DNA from: Candidatus Eiseniibacteriota bacterium | GTDB taxonomy: Bacteria; Eisenbacteria; RBG-16-71-46; DASYSL01 | Reading direction: 5' to 3' | NCBI GenBank assembly: GCA_035259005.1 | Contig: DATFWU010000242.1 | Location: 1-56,723, forward strand | DNA: 56,723 bases | Shown here: positions 19,296 to 55,193 of the stretch, one piece after another | Numbering within the stretch: the first letter of the stretch is position 1 | Layout: each line of letters begins with the position of its first letter | Program-made: the position numbers and the translations under genes | The notes under the pieces: generated by a model | What the model was told of the DNA's origin: nothing | Database searches by the model: none | The model's input: the letters and a program-made list of their open reading frames with translations, nothing else

Positions 19296-19357
19296 GCGCA
19301 CGGACGTACTACCGCTAGACGCCGCATGCAGTTCCGAGACCCGGACCGGCCTCGTTC

Positions 19358-23834: not shown

Positions 23835-23969
23835 CGGGTTCCTCCGAAAGGGGTGCCTCGAAATCGGGTTTCCCCGGATAGTACACCGCTCGGGCCTCTG
23901 GGGTCGCTCCATTATGGCCAGACCCGCGGGCGGGGTCCAAGCCCCCGGCCCGAGTGCGGTTTCAGCGCT

Positions 23970-28289: not shown

Positions 28290-28297
28290 TCGCGGAC

Positions 28298-28465
28298 TCA
28301 GAAACGTTCGGCCTGGTCCACCAGCATCACCGGGATGTCATCCACCACCCGGTAGCGCAGACGGCAGGCCTGGCAGGTCAGCATCGAAGCGTTGGAATCG
28401 TATTCGAGATCCCCGCGGCAGACGGGGCAGATGAGAATGGAGAGCAAATCCGCGCTCAGCGCCAT
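28298..28465 (-). CDS. Trm112/UPF0434 (YcaR-like) zinc-ribbon mini-protein, 55 aa
   Basis: Not in the track (<60 aa). Hand translation gives MALSADLLSILICPVCRGDLEYDSNASMLTCQACRLRYRVVDDIPVMLVDQAERF*, which has two CxxC pairs and the IPVML motif typical of the family. RBS GAGGA lies upstream of the ATG at 28465. Its stop is 8 nt from the PorU-like start. Confidence 0.75.
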   Translation of the reverse strand: MALSADLLSILICPVCRGDLEYDSNASMLTCQACRLRYRVVDDIPVMLVDQAERF

Positions 28466-28603
28466 GATCGGCGTTCCTCTACTCGTTCAGGTCGTGGCAA
28501 ATGCCCTGCGAGGGCCTTCGGGCGATGGTCCGTGATGCGGCAGGTAACCAGAACGGTTGAAGCCTCCTACAGGGCGCAGGATGGGCAGGCTCGAGTCGCA
28601 ATC

Positions 28604-28633
28604 AGGATAGGATTCGCGGGGGGATTCCGTCAA
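28604..28633 (-). promoter_or_regulatory. Sigma70-like promoter TTGACG-N18-TATCCT
   Basis: Minus strand: -35 at 28633..28628 and -10 at 28609..28604, in the 200-nt gap between accA and the Trm112-like ORF. It leaves a leader of about 135 nt containing a GCCCT-CGC-AGGGC hairpin. Confidence 0.4.
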
Positions 28634-28665
28634 GTCGGAAGCACTCTTCTGGCGCGGCTCGACGC

Positions 28666-40565: not shown

Positions 40566-40583
40566 AACCGCCGCACCTATACT
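40554..40583 (+). promoter_or_regulatory. Sigma70-like promoter TTGACG-N18-TATACT for tRNA-Glu
   Basis: -35 at 40554..40559 and -10 at 40578..40583. The tRNA 5-prime end is 33 nt downstream. Confidence 0.5.
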
Positions 40584-40616
40584 GCCGCTCGCTCCGCTAC
40601 GCGCCCCATTTGCAGC

Positions 40617-40690
40617 GTCCCCATCGTCTAGCCGGCCTAGGACCCCGCCCTTTCAAGGCGGAAACACGGGTTCGAATCCCGTTGGGGACA
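40617..40690 (+). tRNA. tRNA-Glu (anticodon UUC)
   Basis: Acceptor stem GTCCCCA/TGGGGAC, anticodon arm CCGCC-CTTTCAA-GGCGG (TTC), T arm ACGGG-TTCGAAT-CCCGT, discriminator A. CCA is not encoded. Confidence 0.9.
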
Positions 40691-40691
40691 T
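40671..40691 (+). repeat. att core copy 1 (tRNA 3-prime end) TTCGAATCCCGTTGGGGACAT
   Basis: Identical 21-mers occur at 47213..47233 and 50787..50807, all in the same orientation. Confidence 0.85.
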
Positions 40692-40833
40692 ACCCTTCCA
40701 TCTGTCTGCAAACCACTCGGAGCGAGTTCAAACCCAACGCTGAGAAGCGGATTGCTCGTAAGGCAGGCGAGGCGGAAGATCTCCTCCCGTGGGATCAGGA
40801 GCGATGCAGCTCGCCTGTACGGGAGGAGAGGGA

Positions 40834-41547
40834 ATGTCGTTGTTGCGCGAGGTGATCGCCGCACATGCACTGCGGTTCGAGCGGCCGATGCGCTCGACCT
40901 ACGATCCCGCGGTTGGCTCGCGCTTGCTGGTGGCTTTTGTGCTGGTAGGTCTGGCGTTGCAGCCTGCCCTCAGTTTTCTCGCGCGAGCCATAGGTCTCGC
41001 TCGGGAGCCTTGGGTGGGTTTGGCGATCGCAATCACACTCCTTACCGCTGTCGTCCTGGTGCTCCACCGGTTCGTTCGTGTAAGCGGCGGAGCCATCGGT
41101 TTGCACTCCTGGCGGGCTTGGACGCTGCGCGAGCGCATCTACATTTGGACAGTGGTCCCTCTAGCCGCTGTCATGTTCGGCATCCTATTTCGGGACCACT
41201 TTGCACGTCTGGCGGCAGTCCATGGCTGGATCGGCCTACTCGTGTTGACGGTGCCGACGGGGCTCCTCTGGGGCATGGTGCAGGAGTTCATCTATCGCGG
41301 CTTCCTGCAGACCGAACTCGTGCGACGTCTCGGTGGACTTTCGGGGATTCTGGTCGCCAATCTGGCGTACACCTTTGGGCCGCTACACTTCAGCTACCTC
41401 GGACTCGGTACGAACGCCGGAGCGCGGTGGGACATGTTCGCCGCGATCTTCGGCATCGGCTTATTCTTCGGCGTACTCTACAGGCGTTCGGGCAACCTCT
41501 GGATCCCTGCGGTGCTGCATGGGATGTGGCCACTCAACATGTCTTGA
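40834..41547 (+). CDS. CPBP-family intramembrane protease (CAAX/Abi type)
   Basis: ATG at 40834 with GGAGG upstream (residue 16 of the track ORF). It is multi-pass hydrophobic and has the motifs WGMVQEFIYRGFL, FGPLHF and AVLHGMWPLN. Confidence 0.7.
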   Translation: MSLLREVIAAHALRFERPMRSTYDPAVGSRLLVAFVLVGLALQPALSFLARAIGLAREPWVGLAIAITLLTAVVLVLHRFVRVSGGAIGLHSWRAWTLRERIYIWTVVPLAAVMFGILFRDHFARLAAVHGWIGLLVLTVPTGLLWGMVQEFIYRGFLQTELVRRLGGLSGILVANLAYTFGPLHFSYLGLGTNAGARWDMFAAIFGIGLFFGVLYRRSGNLWIPAVLHGMWPLNMS

Positions 41548-41614
41548 GAGCGCATCTTCCCGGGCTGCCGGCGACGCTCTCGAGAGGTTAGCGGTCGAGT
41601 TGAAACGCACCCGG

Positions 41615-42162
41615 ATGGACCTTGGCGCTTGGAAGTGGGCGATCGTCCTTGCTCACAACGCGACACAGAACGTTCTGGCCGATGCGGCTGGGTTCGATTG
41701 CCGCAAAGACACCAAGGAGATCGGCCGGGCCCTTAGCCAAGCTCGATTGGCCGTGAGCGAGGAGAGACACGGAGACTTTGCAGATGCGACTAACACCTAC
41801 ACCGAGGAGCTCCGGCGAGCGATCGGAAACGACGAGCCCACGGGAAGGTTGCTAGACTTTGTGGCCCTCTGGCAAACAGTCAAGACCGTGAGCGCATTGA
41901 AACGACCGTCGACGAAGACTCGCTGATCGAAAAGCTCAACCGTGAGCGGAACAAGTTTATCCATTTCGGAGCGGAACCGCTAACGATCGACCTTCGCAAC
42001 TATCCGAGTCTCGTGCTCAATGCCCTTCAGTTGATCCAGTTCCTTGTCTTTGAAAAGCGAATGTCCTTGTGGCTCGGTAGGGATGACGAGGCAACCAGGG
42101 CCGCCCTTGACGACTGTATCCGAACCACGTCTGAACTAATCGCCGAGTACGGCTCCCGTTGA
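41615..42162 (+). pseudogene. Frameshifted ORF with an RNxxxH (HEPN-like) motif
   Basis: Frame A (ATG 41615, stop 41924..41926) reads MDLGAWKWAIVLAHNATQNVLADAAG...LDFVALWQTVK. Frame B is open from 41794 to the stop at 42160..42162 and reads ...DRERIETTVDEDSLIEKLNRERNKFIHFGAEPLTIDLRNYPSLVLNALQLIQFLVFE...ELIAEYGSR. The two frames overlap over 41794..41926. One missing base near 41886..41890 would join them into about 182 aa. Confidence 0.4.
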
Positions 42163-42190
42163 GGAGGCCCCCGCTCGCAAAGTCTCGCAG

Positions 42191-43891
42191 TTAGCGGACC
42201 AGGACCGCCTTTGCTGTTGTTCCGCTTCCTGTAGCCCGCAGAAAATAGATGCCGTTCGCGAGTCGGCGTCCTGCGCCGTCCCGTCCATCCCAAACAAATG
42301 AATTGCCACTGCCGAAGGGCGCGTCGAACCGGGCGAGCAGCTTCCCTGCAACATCAAAGACCTGAAGGCGAGCTTTTTCGGGATGGTCACCGGCGTAATG
42401 AATCCTCCAGCCACCGGCGACCTCCTCACAGCGGAGCGAGTTCATCTCTGGATTCCGCACGGCGGCGCTGCCAGCAGTCTTGAGCTTTGCCAAGAAGTTC
42501 ACCGGCCGTCCCTGCACGCGCCCCGTGAGCACGAGATGTCCGCTGGCAAGCGCCTGCTCTTCTTCTGCACCCGGGGCGCGGAACCGAACATGCCAGCGCC
42601 CGCGACCGATACGCTTGATCTCCTCGGCGACCTGCAGGTCCTTCGCCGTGGCGCAGTTCATCATGCGCACAGAACCCGGTTGGATCTCGCCGTCGTCATC
42701 GAGTGTGACCGAGCCCCAGTGCCAGGGAGCGTTGCGCTGACCGGGCGCCGCGCCGTCCCATGCGAAGTCCGCTGGCTGCTCGATGCGCAGGAAGTACGCG
42801 TCCGAGCATGCGCCAATGGGAGCCCCACCAAAGGCGGTGCTCTCCGCGCCCGTCGTCACGAACATCTCGCCCGTACACGGGCAGTAGGCCCCGGCGGCGT
42901 CGTATCGGGCTCGCGATCGTTCTGGCCCGGCCAGAAGAAGGTCCCAGGTCTGCGAGGCAACGTCGAAAGCCCAGAGAGAATCGCTTGCCACCCCTCCCAG
43001 GCCATCCCGCCCCCCATACTGCAGGAAGATCCCCGAGACCGGGTCGTAATCGGACAAGGGCCAGGCCTGCCGCGCCGGACTTCCTGCGATCGCTCCCAAC
43101 CCTTGCCACGCTCCGTTTCGAGGGTCGAAAGCCCAGAGGGAATGGGGGGAGAGAGCCGCAGACTCCAGAAGGGTGGTAGAGAGCTCTGGAACCAAGTTTG
43201 GTGAGTCAAAGCAGCCTCGCGGGGGCGCTCCACCTCGAAGCAGAATCACTCCTCGCTGCGGGTCGAAGGGGGCGGCTGCCGATGTTGAACCGCCCGGAAG
43301 ATCACGCGGCGCCGCCGCCCCCCTCCACCGCAACTGCTCCTGATCGAAATGCGCGAAATACCAGTTGCAGGTGTTCGTTCCACACGCACCGAAGAACACC
43401 CAGGGATCGCCCGATCCCGTGTCGACGCTCATTCCGGAAAAGACTCCGGATGGAGCTCCGGGAGGTCCTGACGCGACGTGCTTCCATTGCTGTAATGACG
43501 CATCAAATCTCCACGGCCCGTCTGCGCATGTGTAATCCGGCTCCTTCCCCGGGACGTCGCCTCCGTACAGGTAGAAACCGTCCCCGCTTGCGTCAGCTGC
43601 CATACAGTGGGCAAGGCGTGGACCGGGCCAGGGATCGGATTTCGAAACTGACTCCCAACGCCCCGAAACGAGATCGTAGGACCAAAGGTCCTCGGTGGCA
43701 CGCAGGTCAGGGTCAGCGCTGGCGCCGGCGTAAAGAAGGATCTCCTGCCTCTTAGGGATCAGCACGGCACGCGCCACCACCCGCGGGCCACCGGGAAACG
43801 GCGCGGCTTCACGAAGGGTCTGGCCGAGCGCGATGACGGGAAAGAGGAGCGCGACGAGCGAGAGGAGAAGGTACCAGGGGATTCGCGCCAT
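42191..43891 (-). CDS. Kelch/beta-propeller repeat protein with T9SS-type C-terminal domain
   Basis: 566 aa with signal peptide MARIPWYLLLSLVALLFPVIALG and Kelch-like units (DLWSYDLVSGRWESV, GPRLAHCMAADASGDGFYLYGG). The C-terminus is ...RLQVFDVAGKLLARF...FVWDGRDGAGRRLANGIYFLRATG...AVLVR. Confidence 0.75.
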   Translation of the reverse strand: MARIPWYLLLSLVALLFPVIALGQTLREAAPFPGGPRVVARAVLIPKRQEILLYAGASADPDLRATEDLWSYDLVSGRWESVSKSDPWPGPRLAHCMAADASGDGFYLYGGDVPGKEPDYTCADGPWRFDASLQQWKHVASGPPGAPSGVFSGMSVDTGSGDPWVFFGACGTNTCNWYFAHFDQEQLRWRGAAAPRDLPGGSTSAAAPFDPQRGVILLRGGAPPRGCFDSPNLVPELSTTLLESAALSPHSLWAFDPRNGAWQGLGAIAGSPARQAWPLSDYDPVSGIFLQYGGRDGLGGVASDSLWAFDVASQTWDLLLAGPERSRARYDAAGAYCPCTGEMFVTTGAESTAFGGAPIGACSDAYFLRIEQPADFAWDGAAPGQRNAPWHWGSVTLDDDGEIQPGSVRMMNCATAKDLQVAEEIKRIGRGRWHVRFRAPGAEEEQALASGHLVLTGRVQGRPVNFLAKLKTAGSAAVRNPEMNSLRCEEVAGGWRIHYAGDHPEKARLQVFDVAGKLLARFDAPFGSGNSFVWDGRDGAGRRLANGIYFLRATGSGTTAKAVLVR

Positions 43892-44183
43892 GTCGGCCTC
43901 CTGACGCGACGGATGGATCTAAAGCTTATATCGCTTTCTTGCTTTGAACAAGACAGAATCCGAGAGCAGGCGCTCTGCTTCGGCACCCAGCAGGGAAGCG
44001 CCTTTAGAAAGGACACGTGGATTTTGGTCCCGGCGGTGAACGAGGGTTACTAGCGTCGTGCTCTTTCCTATGGCCCCCATCCACCCATACCGAGCGCCCG
44101 ACCATTGGGCCTGATCCCACCGCGCTGGTGAAATACAAGCACTCGAAGATGAGCACGTAACTGATCCACCCTCTACTCCCCGG

Positions 44184-44212
44184 TTGCGAGCTTTACACTA
44201 CTAAAGTAGTGT
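44184..44212 (+). promoter_or_regulatory. Promoter-like TTGCGA-N17-TAGTGT overlapped by the perfect palindrome ACACTAC-TAAA-GTAGTGT
   Basis: -35 at 44184..44189, -10 at 44207..44212, palindrome at 44195..44212. This is an AT-rich patch (48% GC for line 44161) about 60 nt upstream of the recombinase ATG. Confidence 0.35.
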
Positions 44213-44273
44213 TTAACCGATCACTCCTCTGCTTCGCGAATCCAATAGCTTACGAAGGCGAAGGAGGGTTCCC

Positions 44274-44858
44274 ATGAGCCCCAAAGGTAAAACTGAAGAC
44301 GGTCAGGAGATCCGCTGGCTCTCCCAGGACCAGGTGCGCCGTTTCCTAAACGCCATTCCGCAGGATGCGGTGCGGGACCGGCTGCTGTTCGCATTTCTGT
44401 ACCGGTTCGGCATGCGCGTGAGCGAAGCTTGTCTGCTCCCCGTTGAGGCTGTAGCCCGGAAACGCTGGGAGGTGACGATCCAGGGCCTCAAAGGTGGCCT
44501 CAGACGGACGTACACCGTGCCCCGAGACCTTCGGCCCTTGATCAAGTCGTGGAGGCCGTCAGGCGACACCTTCTTCGCCGGGAGGCAGGGTGGCTTGAGC
44601 CGGGTTCGGGTGTGGCAGCTCTTTCGCCAGTGCGCCGCCGAGGCGGGCATCCCGAAGGAATTCAATGTCCACAGCCTTCGACACTCGGCGGCCGTCCATG
44701 CGCTCGACGCTGGCCTGGCCACGGAAGACGTCCGCGACCTCCTTCGGCATCGTCGGCTCTCGACGACGGACGTCTACGCCAACCTGTCAACGCGAAGGCG
44801 CAATGACTACTTGGGGCGGCTGGAGCGGAGCGAGTCGATAGTCAAGATGCGCATGTGA
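44274..44858 (+). CDS. Tyrosine recombinase, catalytic domain only (194 aa)
   Basis: Catalytic residues in order: R (FGMRVSEA), K (GLKGG), HxxR (HSLRHSAA), H (LLRHRR), Y (TTDVYANL). RBS GGAGGG lies upstream of the ATG. There is no N-terminal core-binding domain. Confidence 0.85.
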   Translation: MSPKGKTEDGQEIRWLSQDQVRRFLNAIPQDAVRDRLLFAFLYRFGMRVSEACLLPVEAVARKRWEVTIQGLKGGLRRTYTVPRDLRPLIKSWRPSGDTFFAGRQGGLSRVRVWQLFRQCAAEAGIPKEFNVHSLRHSAAVHALDAGLATEDVRDLLRHRRLSTTDVYANLSTRRRNDYLGRLERSESIVKMRM

Positions 44859-45061
44859 AAGACGAACGACGGAAGCAGCCCAAGACCGGCGGCCTGCGCG
44901 GTTTGAGCGGCTGCAGGGCGAGCAGGAACTCCAGGCACCCGAAAACGGTAGAAGATTGGCAACCCGACACCTCGTGGGTGCCCTGGCCCCACCTACTCTT
45001 GATTGTGTCTCTAAACATCCGCCAGGGCAGCCCAGCCGCCATTCGCTTGGGATCGAAGAGA

Positions 45062-45685
45062 ATGACACTTGGGCCGCTTCTTCTCATTGCCGTGACTTGC
45101 GGAGCAGCCAACGCCTGCGCCAACGAGGCGCGCTCTACCGTCTCGTTGAGAATGGGGTATAGCTCGTCCTATGAGTTCAGCAACGATTGGAACCTCCCGA
45201 GTGAGGGCTCGAGCGAGTTCGTATACGAACATCCCTTGTCGAAACACGTCGTTCTCATGCCCTCGCTCGGGTATGCCCGGTATTCCGGCTCTCTTGGCAA
45301 TAACATCGGCGACAGTTGGAATGTCGCCGTGGACGTCGTGCCCGTGGGTCTCGGGCTAGCAGCCAGGACAGATCCGAGCCGCCCACTGGTATGGCGGGCT
45401 CGGGAGTCGTTGCTCTTGATCGGGTACCGCTGGAACTCCGAGCATTTCGGCATGTTTAGCGGCGACGTTTTCCCGCAGTTTGAGCATCGCGAAGAGTTGC
45501 TCCTAGGGCTGAAAATTGGTGGCGGGGTGGATCATTCAATTGGTTCGCATGGTGTCATTGGCGCTGGAATCGACTACCTTCTCAGCGAAGACATGGACGA
45601 AGGTCCAAGTTTCGGGCTTTCTGGCTTTGCCCATAAGGGATTGCGTCAATTCCAACCGTATTTGAGCTTGGGCTGGAGATGGTGA
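45062..45685 (+). CDS. Small predicted outer-membrane beta-barrel protein
   Basis: ATG at 45062 (residue 70 of the track ORF) gives the signal peptide MTLGPLLLIAVTCGAANACA. The protein has an alternating beta-strand pattern and the aromatic end ...YLSLGWRW. Confidence 0.5.
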   Translation: MTLGPLLLIAVTCGAANACANEARSTVSLRMGYSSSYEFSNDWNLPSEGSSEFVYEHPLSKHVVLMPSLGYARYSGSLGNNIGDSWNVAVDVVPVGLGLAARTDPSRPLVWRARESLLLIGYRWNSEHFGMFSGDVFPQFEHREELLLGLKIGGGVDHSIGSHGVIGAGIDYLLSEDMDEGPSFGLSGFAHKGLRQFQPYLSLGWRW

Positions 45686-46191
45686 TGACCTGGGGCGTCT
45701 GGGCCGGAGCCACGCAAGTCAAAATGCGCAGGAGAGAGACAAGCACGTAAGCAATAGGCACACTGCCCTCATCTGACGGGTTTCCTCTGTGTCTTCTCTC
45801 TGCCCCTCTCCCTGTCCACCAATGCCGGGTATCTCCCCACTCAGCCCTGCGCGCGCAAGACAAGCATCGCTTCGCCGTCGACGCCGTTGGAAGACAACCT
45901 CCACATCCAGGACAGTGCCGAAGGCGGTTTGCAGCCTGCCGCTTATGATGCGCAACCATCAGCTCCATCAGCTTCCTGGTGTCGGGCGTGCGACGTCGGG
46001 ATGGCCTCACGTATCGGACGTGCTTCCACATTCCTTCATCCCTCCCTGACTCGAGGATGCGACTCGGAGCATTCTGAGGATTGTGCGATTAGTGAGAGGC
46101 AGTCTCCGGCCCAACGCCGACCGTTGCGGGAATTGCTCGGTTCGAAGACCTGAGCTAGATTTTCTGCCGCACCTCGCCCACCGAAGTTGAC

Positions 46192-47073
46192 ATGTTCGGT
46201 CAAGCTAGACGAGTCGGTTTCTTCATCCTCATCCAGTTGAAGCAAACTTGCGAGGGTGCCGTGACAGGACTTCTGTTTTGCTTCGTACTCTCCATCACGT
46301 CCGCCTCCGGTACCCCCGTCACCAAACTGGATCTTCCAGCAACCATCGCCTTCGACGAGCGCACGCATCACCTCTTCATGTACGGTCACGAGATCCACAG
46401 CCCAGTGACGCTCGCCTACGACAAGGGCGACCTGGTCGCCAACGGGTTTCGTCCAAACCCTATCGTCGAAGACACGGCGAGAGCCGAATCGGTCGCAGCC
46501 CGCGTGTACAATGATGTGCCCTTCATTCAGGGGTTGCACGCGCAAGGCAAGAGCTACCGTGCGGCCGGACGTGAATACGAAACCGCATGGACGAAGACGG
46601 TTTATCGAGCCATGGGAGAGTTTCGTTCGGCTTGGATTGCCGGCGACTCGGCGAACGCTGAGCAACGGGCGAAAGCGGTCCTGGACACGAGCTTGATCGA
46701 CGTTGAGAGGACTCTCATCGGTGATCTCGGCTCGGCAGTAGTCCTGAAGGGTTTGGGGGACTCGCCGATCTATTGCTCAGCTCCTGATCGGACACCGACG
46801 CCGCCCCCGATGACCCCGGAAGAGCAGGAAGCGGACCGCCGCACCGGAGCCATGGACCAAGCCTGGGAGATCCAGTCCTTTCTCGTGACAGCCGATCAGG
46901 GTTTGATGGTGCTCGGGGGTCCGAAGGGTGGCGTTGGCATCGTCCAGCGCGGTGTCGGGGCATATGACGCGCTCGATGAGATCAAACGGTCAATCAAGTA
47001 CGGGGTGCCTGATGGCAGCGTAGTGCCTGAGGCGCTACTCAGGGAAATCATCGCCGCTCAGGCCCACCATTGA
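46192..47073 (+). CDS. Hypothetical protein
   Basis: 293 aa. Codon third positions are GC-biased in this frame and the composition is protein-like. I recognise no family. I prefer it over the antisense ORF 46036..46665. Confidence 0.5.
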   Translation: MFGQARRVGFFILIQLKQTCEGAVTGLLFCFVLSITSASGTPVTKLDLPATIAFDERTHHLFMYGHEIHSPVTLAYDKGDLVANGFRPNPIVEDTARAESVAARVYNDVPFIQGLHAQGKSYRAAGREYETAWTKTVYRAMGEFRSAWIAGDSANAEQRAKAVLDTSLIDVERTLIGDLGSAVVLKGLGDSPIYCSAPDRTPTPPPMTPEEQEADRRTGAMDQAWEIQSFLVTADQGLMVLGGPKGGVGIVQRGVGAYDALDEIKRSIKYGVPDGSVVPEALLREIIAAQAHH

Positions 47074-47076
47074 GCG

Positions 47077-47099
47077 GTGTGCGGGAATTGTGCGGGAAC
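47077..47099 (+). repeat. Tandem GTGCGGGAA motif pair (GTGTGCGGGAATTGTGCGGGAAC), island-end module A
   Basis: A 22/23-identical copy lies at 50649..50671. Both start within 4 nt of a plus-strand stop codon and sit 157-159 nt before the end of an att core. Confidence 0.7.
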
Positions 47100-47212
47100 G
47101 ATCCGGAGGAATAGGTACGAACGGCGCTCGAGGGGTACGTCGCACCGCCGTAAGTGGCTGATTACTCTGCATCGTCGCGTTTGTTATCCGACAGTTCCTT
47201 GCGGTCGGCCGA

Positions 47213-47233
47213 TTCGAATCCCGTTGGGGACAT
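47213..47233 (+). repeat. att core copy 2
   Basis: Exact 21-nt match to the tRNA-Glu 3-prime end. The match extends to 28 nt (47208..47235) with copy 3. Confidence 0.85.
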
Positions 47234-47782
47234 TCAGTAAACGCCAAAGATTCGCTTCCTCGGTCCGTTCCGGAAGCGCGCGGTGGCAAACGTGCCACCG
47301 TACTTCTTATAGGCGGGCTCCCCCTCGATTCGCAGCGAAACAAACTTGATCGGCGGCGACTGCGCAGCGTTGAGTATCACGCACCGCGCTGTCGCTGCCA
47401 CGATCATGTCGTAGGTAAAGTCATCCAGATCTCTTGGCGGCTTCGTGGCGCGGAGAGTGACGCGCAGCGTGTCGCCGAAGAGTGGCGGTTCCCGATTCGA
47501 GTTGGACGTCACCTCGACCCGAAGCCCCACGTCGAAAGCCGCGTTGCGTTGTTGCGGTCCGTACTGGGTGCTTACAAGGCTCGAGTCACATGTAGCGAGC
47601 ACCGCTAAGATGCCGACATCGTCGGAGTTGTACGTTAGTACCGTGACGCGGCTAAGCGAGAGGTCACTGAAGGACCAGATGGGTTGAAACGCCTCGAAGG
47701 ACCACTCCTCGGAACATAGCCCGCGGGATGATCCCACTGTCGTCAACGCCATCGCTAAGAGAAGCGCACCGGTTAATCTCAT
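47234..47782 (-). CDS. Hypothetical secreted protein
   Basis: ATG at 47782 (residue 16 of the track ORF) gives MRLTGALLLAMALTTVGSSRGLC. 182 aa. The stop abuts att core copy 2. Confidence 0.5.
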   Translation of the reverse strand: MRLTGALLLAMALTTVGSSRGLCSEEWSFEAFQPIWSFSDLSLSRVTVLTYNSDDVGILAVLATCDSSLVSTQYGPQQRNAAFDVGLRVEVTSNSNREPPLFGDTLRVTLRATKPPRDLDDFTYDMIVAATARCVILNAAQSPPIKFVSLRIEGEPAYKKYGGTFATARFRNGPRKRIFGVY

Positions 47783-47997
47783 CCCAGGCCCGCCCCAGGT
47801 GTCACGCAGCCATGATCCGGTCTCCATAGGTGTCGGCCCATGGCCGAAGGCACTTCACCGTGCAGAGGTGGTCCGAGAGGCTAAGTACACCGTGAGACAG
47901 CCCGTCTGGCTACGCCCCCCAGAAACGGTTCCACTCGCCTATGGGAGGGTCCGGACCTAGCCGCCGCAAGGACATTCGAGCCCAACCCAGGCCGGGT

Positions 47998-48159
47998 TCA
48001 GGCGACTCTTAGGCTATTCCGGAGGACTTGCAGGCTTCTGAGCCACGCCTCCAGCTGGTTCCAACTCGCGATAGTTGGGGACACCAAATTAGTGCCAGCC
48101 ACGGCCTGCAATTTGTTCCACACCAGGCTGCCGGAGAGGGAGATTTCCCTCTCGGGCAC
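47998..48159 (-). CDS. Mini-ORF 1 of the SWNQLE-WLRSL family (up to 53 aa; start uncertain)
   Basis: Hand translation gives ...SLVWNKLQAVAGTNLVSPTIASWNQLEAWLRSLQVLRNSLRVA*. Possible starts are GTG 48159, GTG 48102 and GTG 48084. The last 28 codons are homologous to mini-ORF 2 and end at the same aligned stop position. Confidence 0.35.
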   Translation of the reverse strand: MPEREISLSGSLVWNKLQAVAGTNLVSPTIASWNQLEAWLRSLQVLRNSLRVA

Positions 48160-48179
48160 ACTTCCGTCTACGAAGCTCT

Positions 48180-48208
48180 GCGGCGGGCCCGGGCTCGCTG
48201 CTTTTTTT
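48180..48208 (+). terminator. Rho-independent terminator (9-bp stem, CCGG loop, T7)
   Basis: GCGGCGGGC-CCGG-GCTCGCTGC (7 Watson-Crick plus 2 G-U pairs) followed by TTTTTTT. There is no plus-strand gene upstream. An 8-bp hairpin GAGAGGGA-GATT-TCCCTCTC lies at 48134..48153. Confidence 0.6.
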
Positions 48209-48641
48209 ATTGACCGGCGCGATGAGCGGGCTTTGAATTCGGGCGCATGGTCCCACCTGGTGCTGCCGGGCTTAGTTCCTCGAGAGCCTCCTCTCCTCTG
48301 ACACCCGGCGGAGAAGACTTGGTTCCCGCATCCGTGGTTCCTTTGGCGCGGGCCTGAGGTCTCGCTTCTCCCCGTGGTGTAGCCAATGCCTGCGCCGGTC
48401 AGACGATAGCGTCACGTCTTCGTGGCTTTGGCACAACGCAATCACGCTGGCACAGCTCATGTCGTCCTTGGCCGTCATTTCCGAGCGTCCTCGAACGTGA
48501 CCATCCGGTCGCGCGGCGCGAGAGCCGGATGACGGTGGCGCCGATCGCCGGAAACGAGGAGCTGCCACGACCCGCTGGGCTGCGGGCCTATTCCGGACGT
48601 CATCAAGCGTCCATTCTGAGTCACTCCAATGGAGACCCCCT

Positions 48642-50648
48642 ATGTTGCGCCGCCCCCAAGTCGCACTCGCCCTCGCGCTGTGTCTAGCGTTCCCCACATT
48701 CGCTCACGGGCAATCGCCCACGCCCGGGCCGGCGCCCGCGCCCGCAGACAAGGACACTCGACGCACCACGCCCGGCGGGAGCTCGTTCATCCTCCCCGCA
48801 GGGTGGACGATGACGACGAAAGACGCCCTCACCATCCTCATGCCCCCCGAGGACGACACGCACATTGCGATCGTCGACGTGAAGGCCAAGGACGCTGACG
48901 CCGCGGTCGCGGCAGGGTGGGCGGCGTACCAACCAGGCTTCAGCCGCCCCCTCAAGATCACCGTGCCTGAAGCGCCAACCGAGGGCTGGGAGGAGCGCAA
49001 GGACTACCAGTACGAGACGTCGCCGAACGAAGGAGTGTTCGTGGAGGCGGTGGCGTGGCGAGCGGGCGACACGTGGACGGTGTCGATCCTTGACGGCACC
49101 AAGTCTACGATCGAGAAGCGCGGGGGGCCCATTACGATCGTGGCCCAGAGCCTGCAGCCGAAGGGCTACACGCGCGAGTCGTTCGCCGGCAGGAAGGCGC
49201 ATCCGCTCGATGCCGAGCGGCTCAAGGTGCTCAAGGAGTTCGTCGCCAGCGGGATGAAGCAGCTCGAAATTCCGGGCGCGGGGATCGCGTTCATCGACGG
49301 CGGTAGGACGGTTCTTGCAGGCGGCCTGGGCGTGAAGCAGATGGGCAAGCCAGATCCGATCGATGCCAACACGCTGTTCATCGCCGCGTCGAACACCAAG
49401 GCGTTAACGACGCTGTTGCTCGCCATACTCGCCGACGAGAAGAAGCTGCGCTGGGATGAACCGGTCACGGAGTTATACCCCAGCTTCAAGCTCGGTGACG
49501 CAGTCACAACGAGAGAGGTGCTCGTGAAGCATCTCGTGTGCGCCTGCACCGGCATGCCGCGGCAAGACCTCGAGTTGGATATCGAGTACGAACACGAGAC
49601 ACCGGCCTCCGCGCTTCGGCTGCTCGGCACGATGCAACCGACGAGCAAGTTCGGTGAGGTGTTCCAGTACAGCAACCTCATGGCGGCCGCGGCCGGCTAC
49701 ATCGGCGGCGCCACCGCGCTGCCGGGGAAGGAGTTGGGCGCCGCCTATGACGAGGCAATGCGCACCAAGGTATTCGCGCCGCTCGGCATGACGACGTCGA
49801 CGTTCGACTTCGCCAAGGCTATGCGAGGCGACCACGCCTCGTCGCACGGAGACGACGTGGACGGGAAGCAGGCGCTCGCGCGGATGGACCGCGCCTACTC
49901 CGTGTACCCATTTCGCCCCGCCGGTGGGCTGTGGACGAGCGCGAACGAGCTGGCCAAGTACGTCGAGATGGAACTCGCGAAGGGCATGCTGCCCAACGGC
50001 AAGCGGTTGGTGTCGGAGGAGAACCTACTCGCGCGCTATATACCGCAGGTCGCCGTGAGCGATGGCGTGAACTACGGCATGGCGCTGATCGTCGACACGA
50101 AGTACGGCATCCAGGTGGTGCACCATGGCGGCGACTTCGTGGGATACCACAGCGACATGATCTGGTTGCCCGAGTACGGCGTCGGCGCGGTGATTCTCAC
50201 CAACTCCGAATCGGGCTTTCTCATTCTCGAACCGCTGCGGCGGAAGGTGCTCGAGGTGCTGTTTGACGGCAAGCCCGAGGCTGACGCTGCGCTCGCCACT
50301 GCGGCGAAACAGCGAAAGGAGGCGTTCGCGAAGGACCGCGAACGCCTCGTCGTCCCGGCCGACGCGGCCGCGGTCGCGAAGCTGGCAACGCGCTACGTGA
50401 ACGCGTCGCTAGGCGCAGTAGCGGTGGAGAAGCAGGGCGCCAGAACCCTGTTCGACGTGGGAGGGTGGAAGAGTGCCGTCGCGTCGCGCAAGAACGAGGA
50501 CGGAACGATTTCGTTCATAACGATCGACCCCACGGTCTCGGGCTTCGAGTTTGTGGTCGCGGATTCCGTTGGTGCCCGTCGCCTCATCATGCGCGACGCG
50601 CAACACCAATACGTGTTCGCGGAGGCGAAGGCGCCGAAGCGACCCTAG
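48642..50648 (+). CDS. Secreted serine hydrolase, class C beta-lactamase / PBP4* family, with extra N- and C-terminal domains
   Basis: 668 aa with signal peptide MLRRPQVALALALCLAFPTFAHG, SxxK in FIAASNTKAL, YxN in QYSNLMA and a third motif HHGG. Confidence 0.85.
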   Translation: MLRRPQVALALALCLAFPTFAHGQSPTPGPAPAPADKDTRRTTPGGSSFILPAGWTMTTKDALTILMPPEDDTHIAIVDVKAKDADAAVAAGWAAYQPGFSRPLKITVPEAPTEGWEERKDYQYETSPNEGVFVEAVAWRAGDTWTVSILDGTKSTIEKRGGPITIVAQSLQPKGYTRESFAGRKAHPLDAERLKVLKEFVASGMKQLEIPGAGIAFIDGGRTVLAGGLGVKQMGKPDPIDANTLFIAASNTKALTTLLLAILADEKKLRWDEPVTELYPSFKLGDAVTTREVLVKHLVCACTGMPRQDLELDIEYEHETPASALRLLGTMQPTSKFGEVFQYSNLMAAAAGYIGGATALPGKELGAAYDEAMRTKVFAPLGMTTSTFDFAKAMRGDHASSHGDDVDGKQALARMDRAYSVYPFRPAGGLWTSANELAKYVEMELAKGMLPNGKRLVSEENLLARYIPQVAVSDGVNYGMALIVDTKYGIQVVHHGGDFVGYHSDMIWLPEYGVGAVILTNSESGFLILEPLRRKVLEVLFDGKPEADAALATAAKQRKEAFAKDRERLVVPADAAAVAKLATRYVNASLGAVAVEKQGARTLFDVGGWKSAVASRKNEDGTISFITIDPTVSGFEFVVADSVGARRLIMRDAQHQYVFAEAKAPKRP

Positions 50649-50671
50649 GTGTGCGGGAACTGTGCGGGAAC
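50649..50671 (+). repeat. Tandem GTGCGGGAA motif pair, island-end module B
   Basis: GTGTGCGGGAACTGTGCGGGAAC starts on the base after the TAG stop of the hydrolase gene. Confidence 0.7.
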
Positions 50672-50786
50672 TACCTACCGGCAAGTGAAACTATCAGTCG
50701 CCATCTGCGTCGCCCGGTGGGTGCAAGTCGTTGGATGAACTCGATTGGCCACGATTGGTGTCCGTTGGTTCCCGCGATGTTGCCGA

Positions 50787-50807
50787 TTCGAATCCCGTTG
50801 GGGACAT
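50787..50807 (+). repeat. att core copy 3
   Basis: Exact 21-nt match to the tRNA-Glu 3-prime end. Confidence 0.85.
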
Positions 50808-50981
50808 TCCTCCACGGGGAACAGTTACTCCGAGCTGCTTGAATGCCTCGGAGGAACCCAATCGACTCCCGTCGGCCGCGCCCGCCCCACGCCCTCGCGC
50901 ACGCTCGTCGCCGAGCATCGCGTATCGCTGAGTCATGGCGATGGACACATTGGGTGCGGTGGTGCTTCTCGACGCTTCGAC

Positions 50982-52052
50982 TCACTTCGCTTCGAACTGC
51001 CTGCCGCGCGCAAGCACAGCGACGTCGATGTTCTGAAACTTGAACGGTAGTCCCTGATCGACGAAGAGCCGTGGGCCCGACTGAAGCTGATAGTGCAGGT
51101 GTGGCCCGAATGCGTTTCCCGAGTTCCCCAGCTTTCCGATCACCTGGCCGGCGGCGACTCGATCCCCGACCTTGACCATGACGGACCCTTCTTGCATGTG
51201 CATCATGACGCTGAACTCCGAATTGCCGTGGTCGATGATGACGCAGTTGCCAGCCCACGCCATCACCGGGTCGTGCAGCGCCGCGTACAACGTATCGTCC
51301 CTTCCGGGATGTGGATTGTCGGGCACGTCATTGCGCGCGTAGGTCACGGTTCCAGCCGCGGGCGCCAGGATCTCGCGGCCCCAACCGGCGGCGGATGCGT
51401 TTTCTTGGGCTTGGCTTTTCTGCTCTGCCCCGTTCTCGCCGAGGCCGCGCAGGTCGATCGCGAAGTCGGCCCCCCAGTTGCCACCGCCGCCATGGCCTCC
51501 GTTCGTGATCCAGTCCTGCCCGACCACGCCGTTGCCGCGAAAAGGCACGATGAGCGACGTCTTCTGCTGATAGTACTGAACCGGGATCATCAAGGTCCGT
51601 TCCGCCATCCGACCCTTCGCGTCCGCGACCTTCACCCGCACTTCTGCCGACCCGATCCTCAGCGCCTGCGGGCAGCGGAAATAGAAGTGGAGGTCGAAGG
51701 CTTCGGGCAACGTGAGCATGCGCCGGGGCGACGACAACGGAGTATCCGACTCGATCCGATAGTGCTCCCCTTTCATCTTCGCCAACGGCTCGGTCGGCCA
51801 CTCCTGCCGCTCGACGATCGAATGGCCATCCGAGAGCTGCACGCTCGCAGAAATCGGCGTGAGCACGGAATCGGTGGAGCAAATCACCGCGACGTCGAAC
51901 ACGAACGTCGACGTTTCGGTGTTCCCCGGGTCGTCCACCTTGTAGACGATCGCCGGAACGACCTGCAGACGAAAATCCGGTTGAGCGGCCCCAGCGGACC
52001 GAGCGACAACCAGGGATGCAAGCAGAAAGAGCAGCGGCAGGACTCGACTCAT
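50982..52052 (-). CDS. Secreted M23-family metallopeptidase
   Basis: ATG at 52052 (residue 117 of the track ORF) gives the signal peptide MSRVLPLLFLLASLVVARSAGA. The C-terminal LytM domain shows DHGNSEFSVMMHMQEGSVMVKVGDRVAAGQVIGKLGNSGNAFGPHLHYQL. Confidence 0.8.
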   Translation of the reverse strand: MSRVLPLLFLLASLVVARSAGAAQPDFRLQVVPAIVYKVDDPGNTETSTFVFDVAVICSTDSVLTPISASVQLSDGHSIVERQEWPTEPLAKMKGEHYRIESDTPLSSPRRMLTLPEAFDLHFYFRCPQALRIGSAEVRVKVADAKGRMAERTLMIPVQYYQQKTSLIVPFRGNGVVGQDWITNGGHGGGGNWGADFAIDLRGLGENGAEQKSQAQENASAAGWGREILAPAAGTVTYARNDVPDNPHPGRDDTLYAALHDPVMAWAGNCVIIDHGNSEFSVMMHMQEGSVMVKVGDRVAAGQVIGKLGNSGNAFGPHLHYQLQSGPRLFVDQGLPFKFQNIDVAVLARGRQFEAK

Positions 52053-52333
52053 GGTGCGCACCTCCGGCGTATCCGACAAGGCGAGTGCCCGGAAGGTTGG
52101 AACACCCTTCACCGGCAAATCGGTCGAGAGGGGCAGCGCGCCCTCCAAGCAATCGAGTGGCATCGAGGGCCCATCTGGCGCGCGAATCTGAGTGAGCCCT
52201 GAGCCGATTCCCCCATCTAAACGGGGTATCCTCTGCGCGTATGAGCCCCGAAGAAGCATGCGGTTCCATTCGCGCCTGGGAGCGCACCAACATCGGCGGC
52301 TCGCCTGAAATCGGGCACTTGGCCCAGGGACAT

Positions 52334-52453
52334 CTACGCGACTCTGAGGTTCTCTCGCAGCGCCTGTAGGCTCCTCAGCCAGCCTAGCAGTTGGTTCCAA
52401 CTCGAGGTGGTAGGGGACAATCCGCTAATGACTCTGCGGTCCCGCGGCAACAC
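52334..52453 (-). CDS. Mini-ORF 2 of the SWNQLE-WLRSL family (39 aa from GTG)
   Basis: VLPRDRRVISGLSPTTSSWNQLLGWLRSLQALRENLRVA*. It is in the same frame as the DUF4279-like gene, and its GTG is 6 codons after that gene's TGA. Confidence 0.4.
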   Translation of the reverse strand: MLPRDRRVISGLSPTTSSWNQLLGWLRSLQALRENLRVA

Positions 52454-52471
52454 ACAGAGCCAGCCACTTAG

Positions 52472-52894
52472 TCATTGTCCTTCTCTCGCTCCGGTGGGGT
52501 ACGTGGAGAGTTCGATGCCCATGCCGAGAGCCCCAGCAGCCTTGATGAGTTCGGGTGGCAGATAATCGAACTGCGCGACGACGTTCTCACCGATCCGAAG
52601 CTCAATCGGGAAATCAAGGCGCATGTCTTCGACGGTCGACAACGCGGCAAGAGCGCGCAGTTCACCCGCGTGGCGTTCGAGGAAGGCGCACGCATCGGAG
52701 ACCTGTCCGGGAAGGTTCGACCAAGCTGCATGGCTTACCTCGACGCGGAAGCCGGAAGTAGAATACACAGATCCGTCAGATCTAAACGGAGCCCGAGGGT
52801 CACCAGCCTTGTAGGCCATGTAGGGGTGCAGACCTGATGTTCGGAGAAACTCCTCGACATCGAAATTCGAACCCGTCACGCGCAGCACGCACAT
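52472..52894 (-). CDS. DUF4279-like small cytoplasmic protein
   Basis: 140 aa. The pattern VLRVTGSNFDVEEFLRTSGLHP...KAGDP...W...FLERHAGELRAL...DFPIEL...LPPELIKAAGALGMGIELSTY matches my recollection of the DUF4279 layout. There is no signal peptide. Confidence 0.55.
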   Translation of the reverse strand: MCVLRVTGSNFDVEEFLRTSGLHPYMAYKAGDPRAPFRSDGSVYSTSGFRVEVSHAAWSNLPGQVSDACAFLERHAGELRALAALSTVEDMRLDFPIELRIGENVVAQFDYLPPELIKAAGALGMGIELSTYPTGAREGQ

Positions 52895-52964
52895 GGTTGA
52901 TCCTTTCGCCTCACGGGCCAGAAGCTCTTTCTGCTGGAAGCTTCATCGTAACTTCTGGCCGCGT

Positions 52965-53030
52965 TCATGGTGCGCTTCGGCACCCGTCCAAGCTCCTGAG
53001 CCACACTTCAAGCTGATTCCAACTCGGCAT
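52965..53030 (-). CDS. Mini-ORF 3 of the SWNQLE-WLRSL family (21 aa)
   Basis: ATG at 53030, with an in-frame TAA four codons upstream. It reads MPSWNQLEVWLRSLDGCRSAP*. Its stop lies 70 nt upstream of the DUF4279-like start. Confidence 0.35.
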   Translation of the reverse strand: MPSWNQLEVWLRSLDGCRSAP

Positions 53031-53249
53031 AAAGGGACATCCTTACCCCCACTTGCCGCACAACGCGAGCGAATCAGAGTCGGCCTCCTCGAGCCCAAGT
53101 TTTCTCAATGGTTGGCTGTTGCATTTCTCGCTTCGCGAGGGATAGGCTCATTTTCGGCCCGGGACAGATGGCCCGCAGGTGCCTTCGGCGCAGCGGAGCA
53201 GCGAGCCTTTCTCGCAGCATCCCACGACACGTCGCGCGCGGAGGCCGAA

Positions 53250-54956
53250 ATGAAGTTCTTCCAGCGCGTAGTTTACACATCACTATTTCCTCTTCTCTTC
53301 GCTCTTTTCTGTCCCACCGAGTCCCATGCCTGGGCTCGCGACGGAACTCCGGTTGCCATTGGTCCGCAAAGCCAGGTTCAACCGAAAGTCGTCGGCGCCG
53401 ACGACGGCGGCGCCTTCGTTGTTTGGACCGATCAAGGCACGCACCCAGGATCCGGCTCAGACTACGTCGTCCTGGCCCAGAAGCTGGGACCCGGGGGAGC
53501 AAGCGAGTGGGAGGAGTCGGGAGTGCGGGTCGGTTTCACCGCAGGGGCGCAGAGCCTGGCGCAGCTCGCCTCGGACGATCAGGGCGGCGTCATCGTTGCG
53601 TGGAGCCAGTTTGATGCAAGCGGTTCCAATGCGGCGGTCTATGCGCAGAGATTCACCGCCAAAGGCCAGCGGTTGTGGGGAGATCAGGGCGTGCGCCTTG
53701 CCCCACTCGAGGCGAGCACAGACTTCGCCCTGGTGGGCGATGGCGCGGGAGGCGCTTTCACCGTTGGCGACACCCTTGTCCGCGACGACTCCCTTTCTGG
53801 CTATGACCGTCGCCTTCTGCTTCAGCATGCCGGCGACCGGGGTCAACTCCTGTGGCCGGCAGGCGCCTTGCGCGTGAGCGAAGGTCGAGGCTCACAATTT
53901 GAGCCAAAGGCGGTTCCCGACGGCCACGGCGGCGTCATCGTCGCCTGGATCGATGGGCGCGACCTGTTCCCCGGTGGGTTCAATGCCGACGTATACGCTC
54001 AACGCTTCACGGGTGACGGAAGCAGGCTATGGCTCTCGACGGGCGCACCGGTTTGCCTGAACAAGGCGCCGCAATGGTCACTGGCGGTCATTGCCAGGCC
54101 GTCAGGCGGTATCGACCTGGCTTGGGCGGACACGCGCAAATATCCTCTCTTCCAATATCAAGTCTATGCCCAAGCATTGGATGAGAACGGCGAGCCGCGC
54201 TGGACTCAGGACGGCGTTCTCGTCAGCCCCTACGGCGAGCAGGGGGCGGCTGCACTGGCCGACGACGGAGCCGACGGCATCATCGTCGCCTGGAACGAGT
54301 TTCAGGCGCCCAGCTACGCCATACACATCTTCGCTCAACATCTGGATGCATCAGGCTCCGCCCTCTGGCAGGTGGGTGGGATTACTCTCTCGCAGCCTCG
54401 CGGCGGGTCCTCCATTGTCTCGGACGGCGAAGGAGGGGCCATCGTCCTGCTGTCCGGGGAACAGGCAGTCATCCAACACGTGTCGGGTGAAGGCGCCTTG
54501 CTGCAGTCGGAGGTTCTCTCGCCCAGCGCGGACGGATACGGCGCTCTGACCTCGACTAAGAACCAGTTCATCGCCGTCTGGGGTGACGTGCGCAACGGTC
54601 CGGACGACATCGATGTCTATGCGGCGCGGTTCAAGCCGTCTCCGAGCCACGTGCCACCGTCGCTCACCATTCGCGAGAGCGAAACTCCGCAAACCAGAAC
54701 GGGGGATCTCTCTCTCACTGTCTCCCCTAATCCGGCAAGCGGCCGATTCACGGTGTCCGCCGCCACCACAGGTGGACTTCCGGCTCGTCTCTCGGTTTTC
54801 GATATCCACGGTCGCTTGGTGATGGGTCGTGATCTGAGCGCGGGCGCCATGTCGATGACCGCGGGAGCTCGGGAGCGTCTCGAGCCTGGTATCTATCTTG
54901 TGGTGGTAGAGCAAGGAAAGACGAAGGCCGTGCAGCGAATTTGTCTCTTGCCCTGA
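53250..54956 (+). CDS. Secreted repeat (beta-propeller-like) protein with T9SS-type C-terminal domain
   Basis: ATG at 53250 (residue 120 of the track ORF) with GGAGG upstream. Signal-like start MKFFQRVVYTSLFPLLFALFCPTESHA. There are about 8 repeats of the form DGxGGxIVAWxD...VYAQR. The C-terminus is LTVSPNPASGRFTV...LSVFDIHGRLV...PGIYLVVVEQGKTKAVQRICLLP. Confidence 0.7.
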   Translation: MKFFQRVVYTSLFPLLFALFCPTESHAWARDGTPVAIGPQSQVQPKVVGADDGGAFVVWTDQGTHPGSGSDYVVLAQKLGPGGASEWEESGVRVGFTAGAQSLAQLASDDQGGVIVAWSQFDASGSNAAVYAQRFTAKGQRLWGDQGVRLAPLEASTDFALVGDGAGGAFTVGDTLVRDDSLSGYDRRLLLQHAGDRGQLLWPAGALRVSEGRGSQFEPKAVPDGHGGVIVAWIDGRDLFPGGFNADVYAQRFTGDGSRLWLSTGAPVCLNKAPQWSLAVIARPSGGIDLAWADTRKYPLFQYQVYAQALDENGEPRWTQDGVLVSPYGEQGAAALADDGADGIIVAWNEFQAPSYAIHIFAQHLDASGSALWQVGGITLSQPRGGSSIVSDGEGGAIVLLSGEQAVIQHVSGEGALLQSEVLSPSADGYGALTSTKNQFIAVWGDVRNGPDDIDVYAARFKPSPSHVPPSLTIRESETPQTRTGDLSLTVSPNPASGRFTVSAATTGGLPARLSVFDIHGRLVMGRDLSAGAMSMTAGARERLEPGIYLVVVEQGKTKAVQRICLLP

Positions 54957-55193
54957 AGCGAAGTCTCGGGGGTGAGTGCCGGACCGTCGCCCGGCACCTC
55001 CGAGCCGTCTGTCCTTCGAGCTCGCCGGCTCTGTGCGGTACCCGCAGATGCCTTTCGACTACACGCCACTTCAGACTCTTCTGAACCTGGAGGAACCATG
55101 GATCAATGTTCAACCGATCAAATCTACGCCCGACCTGGTCCGGCGCAGGAACTACCGGAGCCCAGATAAGAGGACACCGCCGCAGTTCCTTTT

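Follow-up and report, generated by a model that had tools for sequence, protein, structure and literature searches.

Tandem accretion and cis-mobilisable elements are known from the ICESt1/CIME system of Streptococcus thermophilus (Pavlovic et al. 2004, as summarised in PMC4891358), and the asn-tDNA islands of Klebsiella are a further example of tandem accretion (PMC4891358). In Dehalococcoides, islands at the ssrA gene form tandem arrays with 20-bp repeats of the 3' end of this stable-RNA gene, and each repeat is immediately preceded by a conserved motif that has no counterpart in the RNA gene itself (PMC3146451). There the repeat of the left attachment site (attL) lies inside the integrase gene, and some islands without an integration module have been proposed to be cis-mobilisable or fixed (PMC3146451). 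Here we describe a tRNA-Glu locus of Candidatus Eisenbacteria, an uncultivated soil phylum, on a contig of 56,723 nt that was analysed over its whole length (the window). It is likely that the 16 kb downstream of this tRNA gene are a tandem accretion hot spot of elements with tyrosine integrases of ~400 aa, which now persist as scars. To our knowledge, no mobile elements have been described for the phylum.

The Dehalococcoides ssrA arrays are the closest match. They share with the tRNA-Glu locus the non-matching motif upstream of the repeat, an attachment (att) site in the integrase gene and islands without an integrase. In contrast to Dehalococcoides, with its serine recombinase DsiB and its tmRNA target, a tyrosine integrase and a tRNA-Glu target are involved here. 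As in the ICESt1/CIME system and the Klebsiella islands, several islands adjoin each other behind a single tRNA gene, the direct repeats between them derive from its 3' end, and some modules have an att site without an integrase. Unlike in these systems, each module lacks its cognate integrase, two att subtypes alternate, the host phylum is uncultivated and any mobility is hypothetical. In the myxophage Mx8 (intP/intX), attP, the attachment site of the phage, lies inside int, the target is a tRNA gene and integration changes the C-terminus of Int. The switch of integrase tails described below resembles this arrangement, and we liken the two by organisation alone. Unlike phage Mx8, the elements at the tRNA-Glu gene are small (3 kb to >10 kb), carry no phage genes and have no member in IMG/VR. 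Conceptually, the locus offers nothing beyond tandem accretion, a known kind of island organisation that is well documented elsewhere; it is another case of it in a little-studied phylum. For Candidatus Eisenbacteria it does, for the first time, resolve a family of mobile elements together with the hot spot where they integrate, including the target at the tRNA-Glu 3' end, the integrase family, its likely arm repeats and the C-terminus that switches between the integrated and the excised form.

Displaced copies of the tRNA-Glu 3' end

ARAGORN and Rfam find a single tRNA gene in the window, tRNA-Glu(TTC) at 40617..40690 on the + strand (Rfam tRNA, 62 bits). It has no encoded CCA and would be the target (attB) of the array and its present attL. 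The 21-mer TTCGAATCCCGTTGGGGACAT occurs at its 3' end (copy 1, 40671-40691) and again at 47213-47233 (copy 2) and 50787-50807 (copy 3), on the + strand and with 0 mismatches throughout, as the original prediction had stated. No further copy was found in the window when up to 3 mismatches were allowed, and 100 shuffled sequences gave 0 matches. Copies 2 and 3 share the 28-mer GCCGATTCGAATCCCGTTGGGGACATTC, in which GCCGA takes the place of the ACGGG of the tRNA. As GCCGA and CCCGT are not complementary, neither copy can form a T stem, which bears out the earlier view that they are not tRNA genes. The exact 10-mer GTTGGGGACA occurs four times, always on the + strand and at or downstream of the tRNA. 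GC content is 0.693 over positions 1-40616 and 0.58-0.64 in each stretch from the tRNA to the window end. The predicted drop after the tRNA is therefore present; it is not followed by a recovery after copy 3, and low GC persists up to the window end. At 52858-52876, 12 nt match the tRNA T arm in inverted orientation; since this match falls within a coding open reading frame (ORF) and is at chance level, it was rejected as a tRNA remnant.

Both distal copies are preceded by homologous arms, and we call the combination a type I scar: a core of 20-21 nt plus tandem TGTGCGGGAAC arm repeats. The first of them, the right attachment site (attR) of module A (47076..47235, +), consists of tandem 11-mers TGTGCGGGAAT/TGTGCGGGAAC at 47078-47099, a P arm and core copy 2. 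Its minus strand encodes an orphan integrase tail, MSPTGFESADRKELSDNKRDDAE with a stop codon (47233-47162). The attR of module B2 has two tandem copies of TGTGCGGGAAC at 50650-50671, core copy 3 and a minus-strand tail that begins with MSPTGFESATSREPTDTNRG (50807-50694). In both, TGTGCGGGAA(T/C)TGTGCGGGAAC stands at -137 or -139 relative to the core. The 8-mer core TGTGCGGG of the arm repeat occurs only 4 times in 56.7 kb, each time inside one of the two type I arms. The 28-mer is perfect and the tandem repeats agree in 23 of 24 positions, while the remaining arm is just ~55-60% identical.

The same architecture is found in an intact relative. Our comparison set comprised the window and 23 loci from contigs of relatives (numbered with L). 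In L015, an integrase ORF on the opposite strand extends with its 3' end into the tRNA-Glu gene (8581-8655). About 3 kb beyond it lies GCCGATTCGAATCCCGTTGGGGACA, whose 25-mer of GCCGA and core is the one that copies 2 and 3 of the window have. Its arm has CTGTGCTGGTTCTGTGCGGGAACC at about -140, and this tandem motif recurs in the other arm at +70, within integrase coding sequence. When the L015 attR is aligned with the two window arms, all three share conserved blocks. The L015 locus is itself a stack, in which an intact element is followed by a type I scar, then by a pair of genes and a type II scar (see below). In L001, whose tRNA-Glu is 100% identical to that of the window, the arm motif and the integrase C-terminus fall within the 85 nt before the contig end. 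In L018-L023, the gene of a 63%-identical integrase, P0246, again shares these 19 nt with a tRNA-Glu. The arm contains 11-mers of another sequence, TGTCCCnnAAC, three times in tandem, which in L018 read TGTCCCTCAAC/TGTCCCCGAAC/TGTCCCTCTTC in place of TGTGCGGGAAC. The tandem 11-mers, which co-vary with the integrase, are therefore putative arm-type binding sites of the enzyme.

The L018 element (1-11250; also seen in L019-L023) is a member of the same family at a tRNA-Glu, exceeds 10 kb and carries AbiGi, Replic_Relax (PF13814) and ThiF-family genes. This cargo points to integrative, non-phage elements.

Two scar types and two integrase tails

A repeat search showed a second family of att-like sequences, here called type II, at 48002-48083, 52338-52419 and 52989-53031. 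Further copies lie behind the tRNA-Glu genes of L014, at a distance of 2 kb, and of L015, at 6 kb, and each copy has the orientation of the tRNA. At its right end the repeat is similar to the tRNA 3' end, with 5 additional nt inserted, CTGGTTCCAAC-TCGCGATA-GTTGGGGACA, and the L015 copy contains the exact 13-mer CCCGTTGGGGACA. Because of this indel, the type II scars had escaped the mismatch search. Their core is degenerate and 10-13 nt long. The copies at 48 kb and in L014 continue with CCA and in this resemble the tRNA-Glu genes of L014 to L016, which encode CCA. Each type II copy contains a minus-strand ORF of 21-29 aa that starts in the tRNA-like end. The position of its stop codon is kept in 4 of 5 copies, and nucleotide differences between the tails fall mostly in third codon positions (e.g. 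15 vs 3 and 5). Within the comparison set, the peptide motif is restricted to regions downstream of tRNA-Glu and occurs in three genomes.

The scar that ends module B1 combines an arm block at 47927, GGTTCCACTCGC, with a tRNA-like end that is degenerate, CTGGTTCCAACTCGCGATAGTTGGGGACACCA, and finishes at ~48086. Its tail, VSPTIASWNQLEAWLRSLQVLRNSLRVA with a stop codon (48084-47998, -), matches the C-termini of the integrases P0281, P0250 and P0286. The second scar (52262-52420) ends module C and encodes LSPTTSSWNQLLGWLRSLQALRENLRVA with a stop codon (52420-52334, -). The third (~52960-53040) ends module D, is more degenerate, and is matched by residues 206-243 of P0281 in tblastn (E 2e-4); its tail reads MPSWNQLEVWLRSLDGCRSAP up to the stop codon. 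A block of the form GCGGTTCCAYTCRC...TGGGAG lies ~70 nt past the tail stops (window 47927-47950 and 52262-52285; L014 ~7000-7025) and may be the arm site of the type II subfamily.

The tails can be traced to an integrase family with more than 4700 matches at E<=1e-20, whose members typically have ~400 aa. Phage integrases are only distantly similar (best matches: APSE and Pseudomonas phage integrases, 23-27% identity). No match in IMG/VR was obtained with any of four queries: the att 25-mer, the arm repeat, a single integrase or an integrase alignment. Among 120 family members listed, 28 had a readable C-terminus. In 24 of these it is SPTGFEPV; the tail ...ASPTGFEPVSPP is the reverse-complement reading of the tRNA and corresponds to the integrated form. 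Alternative C-termini are found in P0281 (...SPSIPSWNQIAAWLRDMDGLRR), P0250 (...SPTGADSNWLTTWLKGFEALR) and P0286 (...SPTGEISNRLVAWLRGIDTLRR). They follow the pattern SPT..WNQL..WLR, which is the same as in the type II scar peptides. The type I arms encode SPTGFESA...EPTD tails, similar between window copy 3 and L015. Since most readable tails of the family are tRNA read-through and a few are the alternative that the type II scars encode, the attP core of the elements is placed within the last ~30 codons of int. In agreement with this, the att core lies inside integrase coding sequence in L015 and L018, where the ORFs overlap the tRNA 3' end.

On these sequence matches, the type II repeats appear to be att scars of a sister integrase subfamily, and the small ORFs in the scars would be tails of the excised-form integrase, left on the P arm at attR. 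Two other readings of the type II repeat, as a regulatory DNA repeat and as a small free-standing gene, were dropped once the tails of P0281, P0250 and P0286 had been matched. For annotation a simple rule follows: short orphan ORFs that start with (M/V)SPT beside GGGGACA are probably att scars and can mark island boundaries that go unnoticed when only exact repeats are searched for.

We propose the following course of events. The attP core would be a duplicate of the tRNA-Glu 3' end within the last ~30 integrase codons. Integration would rebuild the tRNA at attL, so that int reads through the tRNA and ends in ...SPTGFEPV, and attR would keep the other arm and a copy of the tRNA end that still encodes the excised-form tail. 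Each newcomer at the tRNA would push the older elements outward. The five attR scars in direct orientation (two of type I, three of type II) would then delimit modules of 0.6-6.5 kb with secreted or envelope-type cargo, from which the cognate integrase genes would all have been lost. Including the tRNA, there are five or six att sites, all on the + strand: three exact, two clear degenerate and one weak degenerate that is a probable site. The order is tRNA, module A, type I, module B1, type II, module B2, type I, module C, type II, module D and the weak type II scar. At least three att sites in direct orientation thus delimit adjacent modules, as is typical of a tandem accretion array. The modules retain att sites without cognate recombination or transfer genes, and the sole recombinase belongs to another family. 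The stack consists of at least four or five foreign modules, now decayed or non-autonomous.

Insertion polymorphism and the missing integrase

The upstream genes (S8 peptidase, phosphoribosyltransferase and an AAA_22+SPOR ExeA-like ATPase by Pfam) form with the tRNA a block that is syntenic in Candidatus Eisenbacteria metagenome-assembled genomes and soil metagenome contigs (L001, L013-L017). The genes after the tRNA differ among the relatives, six of which have differing downstream neighbours. An integrase reading frame follows in L001, a 3-kb integrase element in L015, a homologue of the window gene 47234-47827 in L014, a polysaccharide-deacetylase-like gene in L017 and, in L016, a secreted protein with a tail of the type IX secretion system (T9SS) type. 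Since the downstream neighbours differ in nearly each relative, the tRNA-Glu site is a hot spot.

L014 resembles an empty site for module A. Its alignment with the window runs from 35602 to the final base of the tRNA (73% nucleotide identity) and resumes at 47253-47794 (77%); it also matches the 48.03-48.09 kb repeat with 93% over 58 nt. Module A is present in L013 (99.6%), which comes from the same population as the window, and is missing from L014 exactly at the repeats. Since L014 joins the tRNA directly to the gene that follows copy 2, module A is an insertion. The original prediction had called for a search for such alleles in relatives, and for this segment one was found; for modules B2 to D the contigs of relatives are too short or different. 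Module A would be the latest arrival, which is consistent with its absence from L014. Module B1 in L014 may be shared by descent or by transfer, and both are compatible with the data.

Independent occurrences of the two segments had also been called for. The contigs L012 and L013, which are independent and 99.0-99.6% identical to the window, reproduce the junctions at copy 1, at copy 2 and at 48 kb. A Logan contig, known by its identical recombinase and gene order and without its DNA, has the same arrangement.

These data also bear on the question whether the repeats arose within one island, by local duplication or homologous recombination, or from duplication and decay of the tRNA. The identity of copies 2 and 3 over 28 nt and the relatedness of their arms would fit such an origin. 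The arms have diverged outside short blocks, though, and the flanking genes are unrelated; no tRNA-like sequence is left 5' of the T loop in the distal copies. Moreover, GCCGA differs from the tRNA and matches the L015 attR in another genome, module A is polymorphic exactly at the repeats, and the two scar subtypes match two alternative integrase tails. We regard a local origin as extremely improbable.

Several results weigh against the accretion of integrase-encoded elements as proposed here. A family hidden Markov model run on the six-frame translation found no fragment of a cognate integrase in the window except the tRNA read-through; an integrase beside an att site is found in L015, L001 and L018. 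At copies 1 and 2, cargo adjoins the core directly without a recognisable P' arm. A scan of assembled contigs with the 25-mer (241 million metagenome records) detected neither a circle or alternative junction nor an empty-site contig of the same population, and its sole match was a 99% identical copy of the same integrated arrangement. The copy 3 junction is known from the window only, and no independent contig covers it. L014 is a distant relative, with a flank of 73% nucleotide identity and a contig that stops 0.6 kb beyond its type II scar. The scar at 53 kb is the weakest of the five, and the assignment of the tandem 11-mers as arm sites comes from position and covariation only.

Two candidate remnants of the integrase did not hold up. 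A weak tblastn match of the L015 integrase at 20958-21223 is in no + strand ORF and is not a second integrase, and WKGM|SPTG to the right of copy 1 is too short to be called an integrase C-terminus.

As the window has lost every cognate integrase, we regard the modules as remnants or as passengers that are not autonomous, and not as two complete elements. Serial integration at one attB, as originally predicted, is supported by the displaced att fragments, by L014 and L015 and by the homologous arms. The number of elements has to be raised above two, and none has kept its integrase; one of the type II scars falls within the second element of the original prediction, and the island extends beyond copy 3. 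Because cargo adjoins the core at copies 1 and 2, a simple course of integration and decay would require more than one clean deletion. The parts next to int may have been deleted without a trace, or the modules are integrase-less passengers that need a helper; both are compatible with our data.

In the second case, the modules would have a functional arm and core and would be cis- or trans-mobilised by a helper integrase of the same family, which may be encoded at another place in the genome or arrive with an incoming element and would excise, shuffle or transfer them. The perfect 28-mer and the near-perfect tandem repeats (23/24) of the type I scars, within arms that are otherwise strongly diverged, speak for this, as does cargo that adjoins the core without integrase debris. 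Integrase-less mobilisable elements have been described at other hot spots (PMC3146451, PMC4891358). No helper is encoded in the 56.7-kb window, however, and the metagenome records hold no circular or alternative junction. Intact elements have the tandem motif on both arms, the modules on one only, and the type II cores are degenerate. On balance, functional passengers are unlikely. We consider less likely still that the tRNA-Glu locus is an integron-like cassette platform, where integrase-less modules with only a P arm and core are captured, reordered and exported by a trans-acting, heterobivalent integrase that would acquire a new C-terminal tail with every recombination event. We return to decayed islands left by successive integrations as the preferred reading. 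In that case the array is probably fixed, barring a helper integrase from another part of the genome. The repeats, the arm homology, the insertion polymorphism, the intact relative, the two integrase tails and the absence of the integrase are observations, from which we infer in which order the modules came, that deletions removed int and that the array is immobile today.

The cargo was assigned with Pfam. Module A (40692..47212; 6.5 kb, GC 0.609) is the first element of the original prediction. It encodes an Rce1-like/CPBP intramembrane protease (40789-41547, +), a Kelch-repeat protein with a FlgD_ig C-terminal domain (42191-43891, -), a 194-aa tyrosine recombinase (44274..44858, +) and ORFs without an assignment at 44855-45685 (+), 45582-46031 (-) and 46192-47073 (+). 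Module B1 (47234..48086) consists of a secreted-looking 197-aa protein (47234-47827, -) and its type II attR scar. In module B2 (48087..50809), an ORF without an assignment (48272-48697, -) and a beta-lactamase-fold protein (48642-50648, +; Pfam Beta-lactamase, 176 bits) precede the type I attR. Module C (50810..52420) carries an M23 peptidase (ORF 50982-52400, -), whose true start is probably further in, and the second type II attR scar. Module D (52421..53040) has a 140-aa ORF (52472-52894, -) before the third. The low-GC DNA beyond (53041..56723, GC 0.624) encodes a Por_Secre_tail protein and a C25 peptidase with FlgD_ig and runs off the window, so the outer island boundary lies beyond 56,723.

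PADLOC gave no matches to defence systems in the cargo. Much of the island cargo is made up of secreted proteins that have C-terminal sorting domains of the T9SS type (FlgD_ig or Por_Secre_tail), in the window at 42191-43891, 52893-54956 and 55194-56714 and likewise in L005, L011 and L016; Kelch-repeat proteins and C25 (gingipain-like) peptidases are among them. The beta-lactamase-fold protein and the M23 peptidase lie close to the sorting-domain cargo of the window.

The 194-aa recombinase and minor observations

The recombinase at 44274-44858 is the only one in the island. Its catalytic residues (R48, K73, H133-x-x-R136, H159 and Y168) are intact, and the gene has a good ribosome-binding site. 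The match to Pfam Phage_integrase (95 bits) covers profile positions 1-170 of 172 and residues 10-176 of the protein, which is a catalytic domain only, without core-binding or arm-binding domains. Its 79 homologues (43-95% identity, nearly all 185-220 aa) form a coherent family, and the nearest structure in the PDB is the catalytic domain of XerA (4a8e). Against the XerA model it scores 106.6 bits (cut-off 220), and without an N-terminal core-binding domain it is Xer-like rather than a full Xer recombinase. Against the NCBIfam invertase model it scores 43.6 bits (cut-off 221). Similarity to the L015 integrase is limited to the active-site region (31% identity over 52 aa).

Should this enzyme act on the three 21-mers, it would integrate, excise or resolve the segments. 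As an active-looking recombinase within the island, with homologues that lie in islands near tRNA genes wherever contigs of relatives are long enough, it is an obvious candidate. It lacks, however, the domains for core and arm binding, and the arms of the att sites encode tails of the full-length integrase family and not its own. The same att architecture goes in L015, L001 and L018 with a different, full-length integrase that overlaps the site. In relatives the islands of its homologues, with variable cargo, are near tRNA-Cys or tRNA-Ser, and no direct repeats of these tRNAs and no TGTGCGGG arm motif were found around these loci. It is very unlikely that the 194-aa recombinase made the att sites. 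The original prediction had noted that the only recombinase is carried by the first element, in its middle rather than next to an att site. The gene and its position are as described; the enzyme is of another family than the att-matching integrases, and its position is therefore no anomaly of an integration module.

Candidate roles of the enzyme are resolvase-like, invertase-like or relaxase-like. Tyrosine-recombinase-like relaxases without a core-binding domain are known (MpsA, TcpM and MobK; PMC9299015), and an MpsA-like relaxase is one candidate. The 194-aa protein resembles these in lacking that domain and FimB/FimE in size (~200 aa), with the catalytic pentad and the tyrosine intact. Unlike FimB/FimE, it stays far below the NCBIfam cut-off, has no conserved inverted repeats nearby and finds its nearest relatives in Xer catalytic domains. 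The only inverted repeats near the gene are of 9-11 bp, in a number expected by chance. An invertible promoter in the 380-nt gap upstream of it was rejected, since the inverted repeats there are at chance level and not conserved across loci. Upstream of the gene, five loci showed no conserved motif, and no partner gene was found.

A perfect 7-bp palindrome, ACACTAC-TAAA-GTAGTGT (44195-44212), lies over the likely promoter of the recombinase and may be an operator; in L005 and L011 this position is taken by another palindrome-like sequence, TTAACA...TGTTAA. Homologues of the recombinase in L005, L006 and L008-L011 (at ~10001-10582) often lie beside a separate int+HTH_17+AAA_25 element, and their neighbours are often defence-like (Type ISP restriction-modification, SLFN helicase, AlbA_2).

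Encoded CCA varies among the tRNA-Glu genes. It is present in L014 (5115-5127), in L016 (11895-11906) and in the displaced attR of L015 (11623-11635), and absent from the window (40684-40693), L001, L017 and the attL of L015 (8648-8660). Apparently, integration by these elements removes the encoded CCA from the working tRNA gene. In L017, ~12 codons beside the tRNA (2783-2830, VCVVRQAAVGM|SPTG) resemble the C-terminus of the L001 integrase (VIVRQARGGM|SPTG) and no integrase follows; they are a possible deletion remnant of an integrase in a relative.

Upstream of the tRNA-Glu gene by ~25-40 nt, CACCTATACTGCCGC (40577-40600) is nearly invariant in L001 and L014-L017 and presumably is the tRNA promoter. 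The flanking protein of the relatives that keep it is just 65-82% identical. A second stretch of lowered GC (0.64-0.68) in the window extends from 19000 to 29000 and contains very long minus-strand ORFs of 1151 and 1439 aa.

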